NCBI GenBank assembly: GCA_050950825.1
Contig: JBMNIH010000011.1
Span: forward strand, 79,163-143,162
DNA: 64,000 nt
Reading direction: 5' to 3'
DNA from: Clostridia bacterium
Lineage (GTDB): Bacteria > Bacillota > Clostridia > JAAYHZ01
The number at the start of each line of letters is the position of its first letter. Position 1 is the first letter of the stretch. Under the pieces are notes generated by a model that worked only from the letters and a program-made list of their open reading frames with translations, was not told the DNA's origin and searched no databases. Positions 19,527-22,977 of this stretch are shown here, in pieces. Made by a program: the position numbers and the translations under genes.

Positions 19527-21353
19527 TTATTTATTCTCTACATAAGTACGATAGTACTCAAAGGTTTTAATTTCATCACGGTTCCAAATTTCCACCCATT
19601 TATCCAAGCCTGCAGCGTATATTTGCTCGATATATTGCTCCCATTCATTGTCGATATTGGCTATCTGCCCTTGATTGAATCGGGTGATAAAATCTTTATG
19701 AACCGCATTGATTTGGGCAGAGGTTTCTTCTTGTAACGTCTTAAATTCCTTGTACATTTCCATGGGCATTGTGAAGGCGGAATAGTACTTATCCGGTCGA
19801 ATCCACAAGCTGTCATCATAGAAGCCGCCGGGGTGATATTTATTCCAGAACTCAACCCATTGGACGGTGCAGGCATCAAAATTCATATAGATTTTGTAAT
19901 CGTTGATAAAATGCTGATTACCGAACTGCCCGAAGGTAGCCCCTTCTCCCCTGCCTTTGTATTGGGGCGGTATTTTTTCAGGGTCGGTAAATATCAAAGG
20001 ACTGTTGAATGGTTCTCCGGCCCATTTATAGTGAATATGCTCGATACCCCACTTGTAGCGTATCCAATCTTCTCCGAAATAGGTGTAGTCCAAAATTTGG
20101 AACAAACGAATCAGTTTTTCGTCGGATACATGAGCCGCTATGGGATAGGTTACGCTCGGATCCCAGTTGAATGTAGCATAAGGACGATACTTTCCGTTTT
20201 CACCGGGTACGGGAGTAATGACAAAACGAGCATCCGGATCCTGAAGCAGTATGGAAGCCGGCGGCCACTGTTCCATATCCGCATAGGTACCCAATATTCG
20301 GTAACCGCTTCTTGTGTTCATATAACCTACTTTACCGGTCGCCCATATGGACTGCAAATCGGCGGCATTTACGCTTCTTAAAAATCCTTTGTCCAGCATT
20401 TCTCTTACATACTGCAAGTAATCACGGTAAGGAGTATAGGCGTAATACGGAACAAAATCTCCAGTGACAGGGTCTTTATAGAAGTGAGAATCGTCCTTGT
20501 CATATCCGAACATATTGTATGTAATGTAGCTGTCGTTGATGGAGCCGGTAAAGGTCGATCCGTAGGTATCGTCTACGCCGTTGTCGTCCGGATCATCCTC
20601 GGTAAAAGCTCTTAATATTTCTTTTACATCGTCCAAAGAAAATTTCGTGGTACTGAAATATACCGTATCGTCCCATTCCGGTTTTACCACGCTTTTCATG
20701 GGAGTTAAGTTTTCCGGTTCATAACCGATATTCTCCAGCCAATCCAAGCGCCACAAAGGTACATATCCGGTATGCGTTGCACGAGGAGTCAAAGCCGTTA
20801 ATCCGTAGTACAAATCTTCCGTCCCCTCTACCCTGTTCATATGAAAGCCGACGGCATCCTCTAACATTTTCTTGTAATAGCCGGGGTAGTATTGCTTAAT
20901 CAAATTCAAAGGTACGGTTCTTCCTAAGCCTTGTTCCACCATATACACGCCGGATTTGTAATAAAAGCCGTAGTCCGGTACGTCTCCCGCCGCCAACATC
21001 ATATCCACTTGCTCATTGGCACCGGATTTTACAAGGATATCCCAGAAGTTAAATTTCACATTGAACTTTTCCTCCAGCTCGACTTTATCCCAGCGTCCTT
21101 CCACGAACTCCGGATTGCCGAGAAAATTAAACTCAAATTTCTCCGCAAAGGGGTTCTCTATAACCGTTGTCGTCTCCGACGTTGTCGTTTTTGGTTCCGG
21201 TGCCTTCGTTGTTGTCACGGCTTTTGTTGTTTGCACCGAGCTTACAGACGATTCGCTGCTTTCGGAAGGATTTTTTTCGCTGCTTGTGTTACAAGCCGCA
21301 AAGTTAAGAATAACAGCCGTTACCATTAATAATATGAACGCTTTTTTCATCAT
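19527..21353 (-). CDS. ABC transporter solute-binding lipoprotein (carbohydrate, LplA-like)
   Basis: Lipobox FAAC, Ser/Thr linker, MLAAGDVPD, RLDWLENIG, DDPDDNGVDDTYG, WGIEHIHY. Confidence 0.88.
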   Translation of the reverse strand: MMKKAFILLMVTAVILNFAACNTSSEKNPSESSESSVSSVQTTKAVTTTKAPEPKTTTSETTTVIENPFAEKFEFNFLGNPEFVEGRWDKVELEEKFNVKFNFWDILVKSGANEQVDMMLAAGDVPDYGFYYKSGVYMVEQGLGRTVPLNLIKQYYPGYYKKMLEDAVGFHMNRVEGTEDLYYGLTALTPRATHTGYVPLWRLDWLENIGYEPENLTPMKSVVKPEWDDTVYFSTTKFSLDDVKEILRAFTEDDPDDNGVDDTYGSTFTGSINDSYITYNMFGYDKDDSHFYKDPVTGDFVPYYAYTPYRDYLQYVREMLDKGFLRSVNAADLQSIWATGKVGYMNTRSGYRILGTYADMEQWPPASILLQDPDARFVITPVPGENGKYRPYATFNWDPSVTYPIAAHVSDEKLIRLFQILDYTYFGEDWIRYKWGIEHIHYKWAGEPFNSPLIFTDPEKIPPQYKGRGEGATFGQFGNQHFINDYKIYMNFDACTVQWVEFWNKYHPGGFYDDSLWIRPDKYYSAFTMPMEMYKEFKTLQEETSAQINAVHKDFITRFNQGQIANIDNEWEQYIEQIYAAGLDKWVEIWNRDEIKTFEYYRTYVENK

Positions 21354-21358
21354 TTTCA

Positions 21359-21858
21359 CCTCCCTAATAATACTTTGATTTTCTTTGAATATCTCACTCA
21401 TTCTTAGATTTTCTCATTTTTCAAGATGAGCCACATGGACAGACAATACATTGTTGCATAATTATGGATTCCATAGTGCATACTAATTAAACCTGCGTCG
21501 TTTTGCTGTTTTACGGCCATTAGTATCCACACATTCTCCGGTGGCAACCCTCCCATGTCTAACGGGGTCATAGCCCTTAATTCCTTCGTTCTGCCTGCCC
21601 ATGGAGGTGGATGTCAGTCAAGCTCCTTCACGGGGTCATTGCCCTTATGGTGAAAATTCATCCCGACTATCCGGCTCTTCTTGTCAATGTTCAATCTATA
21701 ATGAATGAATAGTGAAAACTTGAGTTTTACTCTGTCCCCTTGCACCGCTTAGTTACTTCCGTCATTGCTCGAGGAAGACTGTCAAGGGTCGGCGCAAGCC
21801 GAACGCAGTCTTGCCCTTGACCGTCTTACGAGAGCAATGTATCCTTCCATAAGCCTCC
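21359..21858 (-). mobile_element. Non-autonomous 495-bp IS110/IS1111-like element without a recombinase ORF, inserted in a Shine-Dalgarno sequence
   Basis: Flanked by a CCTCC (GGAGG on minus) direct repeat at 21359-63 and 21854-58; excision restores AAAGAAAAGGAGGTGAAAATG; contains a duplicated 18-nt motif and guide-like segments matching the insertion site. Confidence 0.75.
21530..21680 (-). ncRNA. Putative bridge/seek RNA (boundaries approximate)
   Basis: Stem AGUCGGG/CUUGACU closing an internal loop with AUUUUCACC and GAAGGAG around a GGG...CCC hairpin; a second related module with stem CCUCCAUG/CAUGGGAGG. Confidence 0.65.
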
Positions 21859-22089
21859 TTTTCTTTACACGTAAAATCCGCAATGACGATGTTCTCTATG
21901 TTCTCTATCTTTTCGTCATCGACCGGTCGAATTGATATCTTTTACAACATTTTACCTAATTTTCGATAATGAAAAAAAAGGAACGAAAATGACATGTTTT
22001 TTTAAACAATGACTATAAATTACACAAAGGAAAGAGATTTATTAAATTATGAGAATGGAAGGAAATAATCGACATCAAAAGTAAGGATT

Positions 22090-22977
22090 TTATTCCGTAT
22101 GTTGTTTTCGGTATTCTTTGGGCGTTAATCCGGTGATTTGTTTAAATTTTCGAAAGAAATAGTTGGAATTATTAAATCCCACCATATCCGATATTTCCGC
22201 TACCGTATACGGTTTATTTTTCAATAAATAGCAGGCATGATGGATTCGGTGCTGTGTAAGCTTTTTTGAAAAAGTGACGCCGTAGGATTCTTGTAGAATT
22301 CGTGTCAATTGGCGAACACTCAAATGCATGATTCGAGCCAAATCCTCCACTTTTATATCCTGCATATAGAAAGAATTAAAAAATCCGTCAATAAAGGCTT
22401 CCCTGTTTTCCTGGGTATATTTGAAAAACGGCTTGCTTTCTTCTCCGGTTGTACTGAAGACCTCTCTTAGTATACTAATGATCAGCTGTATAAAACCGCT
22501 TCGAATCACGGCGGTATAACCTAGCTTCGGATTTTCGAATTCTTTTATGATACGCTCAACCATATGAATTTGCTCGGTATTGTCACGGAAGATATAGTAT
22601 TTGTCAATTTGATCGGCGTAATTAAATATCTCGGAATAAATCCCGCTTTTCGGCTCAATGCTGAATCGAAAACTGCATCGGGATGTGCTTTCTTGGGAAA
22701 TGTTCATGATGGAATGGTATACACGAGGGCAAATAATTAAGCAACTTCCGGCATGCAATAGGATTTCCTTGTGGTCCACGTTAAATTGATGCTCTCCGCT
22801 CTTTATGAAATGTACCTCATACACGGGATGATTGTGAAAGGATACGGTCCACGACCCGGATCCGAAAAAGCTTTTGTTTAAATATACTCGCAAAAGAGCA
22901 TCCTGAATATCCGCTTCGAAGTTGTATGTCTTCGTATCGTTCATTTTTTCTATTGGAAGGCTTTCCGAACAATTCAT
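22090..22977 (-). CDS. AraC-family transcriptional regulator (cupin sensor)
   Basis: HNHPVYEVHFI cupin motif; VGFNNSNYFFRKFKQITGLTPKEYR HTH. Confidence 0.92.
   Translation of the reverse strand: MNCSESLPIEKMNDTKTYNFEADIQDALLRVYLNKSFFGSGSWTVSFHNHPVYEVHFIKSGEHQFNVDHKEILLHAGSCLIICPRVYHSIMNISQESTSRCSFRFSIEPKSGIYSEIFNYADQIDKYYIFRDNTEQIHMVERIIKEFENPKLGYTAVIRSGFIQLIISILREVFSTTGEESKPFFKYTQENREAFIDGFFNSFYMQDIKVEDLARIMHLSVRQLTRILQESYGVTFSKKLTQHRIHHACYLLKNKPYTVAEISDMVGFNNSNYFFRKFKQITGLTPKEYRKQHTE

Follow-up and report, generated by a model that had tools for sequence, protein, structure and literature searches.

The window analysed here, a 64,000-nucleotide stretch of the genome of a Clostridia bacterium (GCA_050950825.1, contig JBMNIH010000011.1, positions 79,163 to 143,162 of the forward strand), carries a 495-bp segment (21360..21854, minus strand) that is a real and recent insertion, located where a lipoprotein gene has its ribosome-binding site. 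It represents the 3' non-coding end of an IS110-family element, and we consider it, with a probability of roughly 80%, to be a one-ended copy that has no recombinase gene and comprises the guide-RNA gene and the right end only.

The inserted segment and its empty site

On the minus strand the inserted unit reads GCTTATGG...TTAGGGAG, with one copy of an AG core counted, and its borders can slide by up to 5 bp owing to the ambiguity of a CCTCC repeat present at both 21359-63 and 21854-58. An earlier note, made from the letters of the window, had drawn attention to this repeat and to several further strings, and every string and coordinate it gave matches the sequence. These include the minus-strand strings AGUCGGG (21668-62), CUUGACU (21622-16) and GAAGGAG (21629-23), the last lying opposite the right flank CTCCTTT (21855-61), and the 9-mer AUUUUCACC (21657-49, minus strand), which is identical to the flank ATTTTCACC (21352-60). 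The 9-mer ATTTTCACC occurs five times in the window compared with 1.29 occurrences expected, with 2 of 100 shuffles reaching five, and since it is not rare on its own the case for a guide and its target must rest on other evidence, namely the family-level tests given below. The segment was also said to hold no long open reading frame, in agreement with longest internal frames of 55-56 aa.

The gene downstream of the unit (19527..21353, minus strand, start ATGATG at 21353-48) encodes a 608-aa putative lipoprotein (MMKKAFILLMVTAVILNFAAC...), for which no Pfam or NCBIfam family was matched. The left target flank of the unit, GTGTAAAGAAAAGGAG (21855..21875, minus strand), bears the AG core at its end and represents the earlier 5' half of the Shine-Dalgarno (SD) sequence of this gene. 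At the opposite border, the right-end terminus TTAGGGAG (21360..21367, minus strand), shared with the copies C9 and C10 of the same genome and with the metagenome locus L096, combines with the next flank letter, G, to give GGGAGG, the present SD of the lipoprotein gene. The insertion leaves GGGAGGTGAAAATG before the lipoprotein start, and the expectation that an SD would be retained after insertion is borne out, with the right end supplying GGGAGG.

An uninterrupted version of the site had been predicted, and public contigs from three studies carry the locus minus the 495 bp, giving AAAGAAAAGGAGGTGAAAATG. Comparison of the contigs of four public runs with positions 21000-22200 of the window places the empty joint between 21358 and 21854 (495 letters skipped, five letters fitting on either side), with the joint lying in a 1288-nt contig with 0 other letters in the DNA run X2, and being present too in the RNA libraries X15 and X16. 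In the same runs, contigs of the element are several-fold deeper and run into the C9 site and four further flanks, and at the 21854 end the element contigs of the four runs always continue into the recombinase gene. Contigs of the RNA libraries are deeper in the element than in its flanks, contig depth being unable to show expression, and these libraries give no cover at 21943-22200, which was counted neither way.

The left joint of the copy in the window (hereafter the solo copy) was itself seen in none of the four runs compared, so that the solo copy rests on a single assembly. An assembly artefact, with the true site being either empty or occupied by a full-length element, would agree with the missing joint, as well as with a best word share of 0.93 among the 24 runs listed, which by estimate is about that of an empty site together with copies elsewhere. 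However, the left flank and the internal start share no sequence able to mislead an assembler, and the joint lies exactly at the recombination point following AAGGAG, a coincidence if it were artefactual; we therefore regard an artefact as very improbable.

Located in the 5' untranslated region and on the strand of the gene, the segment could also be thought of as a leader of the usual kind, or a regulatory RNA, belonging to the lipoprotein gene and having nothing to do with mobile DNA. This is refuted by identical copies behind recombinase genes elsewhere and by the locus being known without the segment, and the lipoprotein orthologue in G001, a genome of the same genus, likewise lacks the segment, with 25 nt separating it from the gene before it, leaving the leader reading with next to no weight. 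G001 was also tried as an orthologous empty site and was unusable for that purpose, with a synteny that differs by two extra genes: ORFs of 300 aa and >400 aa stand between an AraC-type regulator and the lipoprotein gene (L092/L090, G001:C210), whose own SD is weak there (AGAAGG).

Full-length copies in the same genome

The segment is found at two more places in its own genome at 98-100% identity, with 490 bp being 100% identical to C9:204580-205069, and the C10 copy, which contains an internal gap, reaching 98-100%. The segment begins, in each of the full copies, 13 nt past the stop codon of a 427-aa ORF with the Pfam domains DEDD_Tnp_IS110 (PF01548, 4.7e-25) and Transposase_20 (PF02371, 2.7e-24), a match to NCBIfam NF033542 'IS110 family RNA-guided transposase' of 215.5 bits (cut-off 140), and a match to the C-terminal domain of the solved IS621 transposase 8wt6 (E 2.8e-10). 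The IS110-family origin put forward in the earlier note is confirmed by this recombinase, and full-length copies with an IS110 recombinase, which the note named as support, lie in the genome itself.

Alignment of the regions upstream of the C9 and C10 recombinase genes locates the element's left end to CATTCCTGTAGTG, which lies 125 nt upstream of the recombinase start codon. The full element is ~1.9 kb in length and consists of the left end CATTCCTG..., a 125-nt leader, the 427-aa recombinase and a 490-nt tail ending TTAGGGAG. In the orientation of the recombinase it reads flank-(G)AG / CATTCC ... recombinase ... tail ... TTAGGGAG / G-flank, with the slash, here and below, marking a joint or recombination point. 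A search for subterminal inverted repeats returned 24 inverted pairs, with 0 of the 24 linking the two element ends.

These copies change the picture of what the solo copy has lost. An internal recombinase ORF was thought to have dropped out, leaving a junction near 21695; homology to the full copies is instead unbroken across the 490 bp and the recombinase lies beyond 21853/54, so there is no such junction. It is the whole 5' 1.42 kb that is absent, comprising the left end, the leader and the recombinase, and this missing piece would lie beyond 21854.

Searching the genome with nhmmer and the alignment A2 described below gave three copies of the RNA and two recombinase genes, with the other IS110-type genes of the genome being only 24-28% identical. 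The copy at C9 is intact, C10 has an intact recombinase and a broken RNA, and the window has the RNA only. In C10 the recombinase ORF is 98.8% identical to that of C9, and the 69 bp between two near-identical RNA hairpins are deleted (L003 1480-1530), fusing the 5' strand of the target loop to the 3' strand of the donor loop. A short related recombinase remnant, with 80% identity over residues 38-77 and then 87-110, lies at G000 C3:44116-44303 with no adjoining RNA copy.

Conservation and structure of the guide RNA

The conserved core of a bridge/seek-type RNA extends over about 21494..21689 (minus strand) and has an outer stem (21675-73/21518-16) and two stem-closed internal loops. Its conservation was followed through relatives of the recombinase, which gave 586 confirmed stretches, with 80 loci of 51-77% identity being kept. 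These loci are mostly from Lachnospiraceae and other Clostridia, the few other groups named by record titles being perhaps binning noise. The core of the tail (query ~160-345) was located 3' of the recombinase by blastn in 70 of the 80 loci, and several of the contigs among the 10 loci without a core match stop just past the recombinase gene. Alignment A2 holds 66 of the 69 distinct cores, with L011 (contig end), L008 (weak partial match) and L016 (close to L017) left out.

The structure drawn from A2 comprises the outer stem and two basal stems, each of which closes an internal loop with a distal hairpin, with the two distal hairpins (21644-32 and 21576-65) forming near-identical direct repeats. 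Its 22 pairs were drawn by hand from A2 and counted on A2, so the counts lean towards the structure itself and come from related sequences; on that footing, 93.4% of cells are paired compared with 20-47% when partners are slid, and 11 pairs show compensatory changes, with 0 of 500 shuffles attaining the observed values. RNAalifold applied to A2 returned a partial structure of 16 pairs, some of them implausible, and was replaced by the hand-drawn pairs. The fold of the single sequence is not more stable than those of shuffles (z +0.99), as expected for large open loops, and lends the structure no support, and an Rfam scan of 20800-22600 at E<=1 matched no family.

The compensatory changes in A2 uphold the bipartite target loop that the earlier note had recognised. 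The stem which it assigned to this loop stands less well, the strings being present as given, but the compensatory changes favouring a shifted register, GUCGG (21667-63)/CUGAC (21617-13).

The 5' part of the unit (21739..21854, minus strand) forms a long imperfect hairpin with 26-nt arms within an outer stem of its own. This outer stem measures 13 bp in full copies, where the two correspond to the inverted repeats I1 (L002 1515-1591) and I8 (L002 1492-1504/1603-1615), and the solo copy begins in the middle of its 5' arm, with the break at L002 1499/1500.

Agreement of the guides with flanks and element ends

The target-binding loop (21613..21667, minus strand) is closed by the stem GUCGG/CUGAC and is made up of the 5' strand GAUGAAUUUUCACCAUAA (21662-45), the hairpin GGGCAAUGACCCC (21644-32) and the 3' strand GUGAAGGAGCUUGA (21631-18). 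The 3' strand of this loop, loop 1 (GAAGGAG here), reads in the same sense as the left flank, and the 5' strand (AUUUUCACC here) is complementary to the right flank, with its ...CACC pairing with GGTG; the segment that pairs with the top strand comes first and the one that pairs with the bottom strand second. A simple search for the best guide match at any downstream position gave no information and was replaced by tests in a fixed register at located element ends, the ends being found via conserved termini in 44 loci on the left and 49 on the right.

The left guide follows the left flank closely, with 6.48 of 8 positions agreeing compared with 5.63 of 8 for permuted pairs (sd 0.12; 0/10000; n=44) and the signal lying at positions -7 to -3. 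Rare left guides match their own flanks at 8/8 positions (TAGGAAAG in L013, TAATGAAG in L021 and GTTAGGAG in L084) or at 7/8 (L067), and poorly matching variants are seen in L045 (4/8) and in L017 and L029 (5/8). For the right guide the mean is 3.06 compared with 2.72 of 8 in the fixed register (144/10000), and 4.18 compared with 3.72 when a slip of one base is allowed (0/10000), with signal at positions 2-4 only. The covariation of guide and target that had been suggested as a check is thus strong on the left side (0/10000) and weak on the right (144/10000).

Seven different sites of this element all begin GG and match the right guide at 9, 7, 6, 5, 5, 4 and 4 of 9 positions, the site in the window being the best. 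The 9/9 match noted originally is therefore true of the window, but the signal in the family is confined to about the first 4 positions and is weaker than was claimed. A full copy on the metagenome contig L096 (640-660, minus strand) sits at GGGAG/GTATAAAATCATG and has GAAUGAG in place of GAAGGAG as its loop-1 3' strand; its own left flank is CAAGGAG, and the left flank of C10 is GAATGAG.

The donor-binding loop (21540..21595, minus strand) has the 5' strand AACGAAGGAAUUAA (21590-77), the hairpin GGGCUAUGACCC (21576-65) and the 3' strand CGUUAGACAUGGGAGGGUUG (21564-45). Its AGGAAU complements the ATTCCT found at the left end in full copies, and across the family the loop agrees with the left end at 6/6 positions in 50 of 56 loci, with loop and end varying jointly among the classes ATTCCT, CTTCCT and CTTCT-, these three classes amounting to few independent events. 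By eye, the 3' strand of the donor loop repeats the right end, reading GGGAGG, or AGGAGG where the right end is GAGGAGG.

Promoters formed across the circle junction are known for IS110 circles. In the larger clade (L066, L059), the right end …CTTGACTAAATAGGGAG joined to the left end CTTCCTGTATAAT… reads TTGACT-17 nt-TATAAT, a consensus promoter as read from the sequence; a TTGACT/TATAAT pair is not evident in the element of this genome.

Insertion into Shine-Dalgarno sites

Ribosome-binding sites were the targets proposed at the outset, and they are seen as such both in this genome and across the subfamily. The left flanks of the subfamily end in AAGGAG or close variants, and the right ends read ...ATAGGGAG followed by G. 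Of the 46 loci in which the right flank extends for 200 nt or more, 29 have a start codon 2-16 nt past the end of the element with at least 50 open codons, compared with 243 of 1320 random positions taken from the same loci. The element and the downstream gene always point the same way, and the SD is rebuilt by the element's own right end. The Firmicute subfamily as a whole occupies AAGGAG/G SD sites in gene orientation.

A mechanism of the following kind would account for this arrangement. Loop 1 would read the left half of the SD (GAAGGAG) and the GGTG that follows, and loop 2 would read the element's own left (ATTCCT) and right (GGGAGG) ends, with recombination at the AG core placing the element in AAGGAG/G in the orientation of the downstream gene. 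Through the rebuilt GGGAGG the gene would keep a ribosome-binding site and be cut off from its own leader; the translation signals are thus predicted to survive insertion while the element parts the gene from its earlier leader.

Several further observations concern the sites themselves. In L030 the right-end terminus is doubled in tandem before the start codon (ATTATTGAGGGAGGGAAG then ATTATTGAGGGAGGG), a pattern expected if a right end already present had served as the half-site for an insertion. In G062:C1, two full related copies lie 3.4 kb apart in the same orientation (2001646-2006678), and the recombinase gene of another copy is interrupted by an insert of ~1.6 kb (2921288-2924238). From an ATG onward (MSEIFKENQSIIREV...; window 21354-21401 and L003 1290-1339), the final 45 nt of the right end form an open frame which, in the window and in C10, happens to share the reading frame of the downstream gene, so that these genes are extended into the element by ORF callers; this ATG lacks conservation in L034 and L014.

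Origin and fate of the solo copy

On the minus strand the left joint of the solo copy reads AAAGAAAAGGAG/GCTTATGG, the same point in full copies being ...TAACTTACACC/GCTTATGG. The joint sits exactly at the AAGGAG/ of the target, which argues that the solo copy arose through an event made by the recombinase. The joint is explained by no known guided reaction, with the start point (…CACC/GCTTATGG) having no AG core and, judged by eye, no trustworthy resemblance to either end of the element, to any guide or to the target. Given a joint at AAGGAG/ and a start within the arm of the 13-bp stem, both ends of the missing piece lie at special DNA sites.

Two routes to such a copy appear about equally likely. 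By the first, an aberrant mini-circle, in which the right end was joined to the point 13 nt past the recombinase stop, would have been inserted with only the right donor half matched, a course made conceivable by the half-match reactions described in a preprint (10.64898/2026.08.31.748434). By the second, an element inserted in full would later have lost its left end and recombinase gene, the loss starting from the cut made by the recombinase.

The earlier note went further, supposing that the segment could move in trans. This would make it a miniature, protein-free element that is itself mobile, excised by the recombinase of the full copies and reinserted at other ribosome-binding sites. Its insertion is precise and has an empty site, it retains an intact right end and guide RNA, and the same genome offers two recombinase genes. 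There is precedent in the minicircles that MITEPpu9/ssr9 forms with the ISPpu9 transposase, as described in PMC12288879, and in the half-site matches that suffice in some IS621 reactions according to the preprint (10.64898/2026.08.31.748434). Furthermore, a related derivative of ~250 bp with both ends (L097 350-612; G061:C1 ~2312250-2312510) lies at a ribosome-binding site, GGAAGGAG/GATTATATG, before a gene; MITE-like in form, it retains ~14 nt from the beginning of the left end together with the terminal ~220 nt, which include the right end, and lacks a complete guide RNA.

However, the left end that the donor loop reads (ATTCCT) is missing, the solo copy starting with GCTTATGG and not with CATTCCTG, and the genome contains a single solo copy, with no second solo junction and no other left flank of this kind in the four runs. 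Scanned against metagenomes, the first 22 nt of the unit matched one contig, the full-length copy at another site (L096), and no solo copy. Additionally, ISPpu9 constructs without either end box form no minicircles (PMC12288879). Movement in trans is consequently unsupported, and a mobile mini-element is an unlikely explanation; we retain the reading of a one-ended copy.

In five other genomes the RNA is almost always beside a recombinase gene, and the exceptions are ordinary decay products. Besides L097, these are L099, a 5'-truncated remnant without a target-like left flank, and L100, a copy with an internal deletion. The solo copy is unlike all three in that its left joint is exactly at AAGGAG/.

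Lacking the left end, the solo copy probably cannot now excise by the normal route, and its excision in trans also seems unlikely. It may still yield guide RNA from the leader transcript of the gene. A more far-reaching and rather unlikely reading would see the solo copy as a half-site product, a mini-circle of right end and guide RNA lodged in the best-matching SD; guide-only parasites would then arise and spread, and the subfamily would act as a device for swapping leaders and promoters with translation signals left intact.

Significance and comparison with known systems

Bridge and seek RNAs are intensely studied as programmable recombination tools. The present work adds a large natural clade of Clostridia elements in which the guide is aimed at the SD, insertion follows the orientation of the gene, and the right end brings a replacement SD. 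Each jump would put a gene behind the element's transcription with its translation start not destroyed. No paper found in the literature describes guide-RNA elements that target the SD and replace it, and supplementary target catalogues may list such targets. Furthermore, one genome offers a one-ended guide-only copy, a full copy, a copy with 69 bp of its guide deleted and an empty site, a natural experiment that could bear on the formation of truncated donors and on whether a recombinase can use, in trans, the guide RNA of an orphan copy.

The element works like the IS621-type bridge RNA and IS1111-type seekRNA systems, with the features of the IS110 family that were tested all being present: recombinase domains (in full copies only), a two-loop RNA, matches of the target and donor loops, a short core at the joints and an empty site. 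IS621 and the IS110 group of bridge RNA elements were reportedly described by Durrant et al. and Hiraizumi et al. in 2024. The IS900 group of mycobacteria inserts between the ribosome-binding site and the start codon in one orientation and resembles the present element as an IS110-family member aimed at the translation start region of its host. The hed ORF of IS900 has no ribosome-binding site or start codon of its own (PMC8141618).

As with IS621 (PMC13626964 and 10.64898/2026.08.31.748434), a DEDD + Tnp recombinase acts here with a two-loop RNA that reads target and donor, and the core is repeated at both joints. The effective guide is short in both, IS621 having one short target guide, the 4-bp RTG (10.64898/2026.08.31.748434), and the signal here extending over ~4 positions. 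In contrast to IS621, the RNA lies 3' of the recombinase, the recombinase has 427 aa compared with 328 in the solved chain, the target is an SD site, and the core is AG on the recombinase strand. The IS1111-type elements ISEc11, ISPa11 and ISKpn4, as presented in PMC11187229, share with the present element a non-coding region (NCR) downstream of tnp, the same guide order, and matches that meet in the target; they differ in that no subterminal inverted repeats link the ends here, and in having transposases of 330-350 aa compared with 427 aa. An IS110-family group with a downstream NCR exists according to PMC11187229, and the element may belong there.

Also comparable to the solo copy is MITEPpu9/ssr9 of ISPpu9 (PMC12288879), a recombinase-less module with AG ends, found behind tnp or alone and dependent on the transposase. 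Unlike the solo copy, ssr9 has left and right boxes that mimic the ends of the IS, and is dispensable for transposition (PMC12288879). The solo copy carries the guide RNA itself and lacks the left end, with a left joint of AAGGAG/GCTTATGG and not /CATTCCTG, and is found once in its genome, which sets it apart from MITE-like elements. Recombinase-less modules such as MITEPpu9 are already known.
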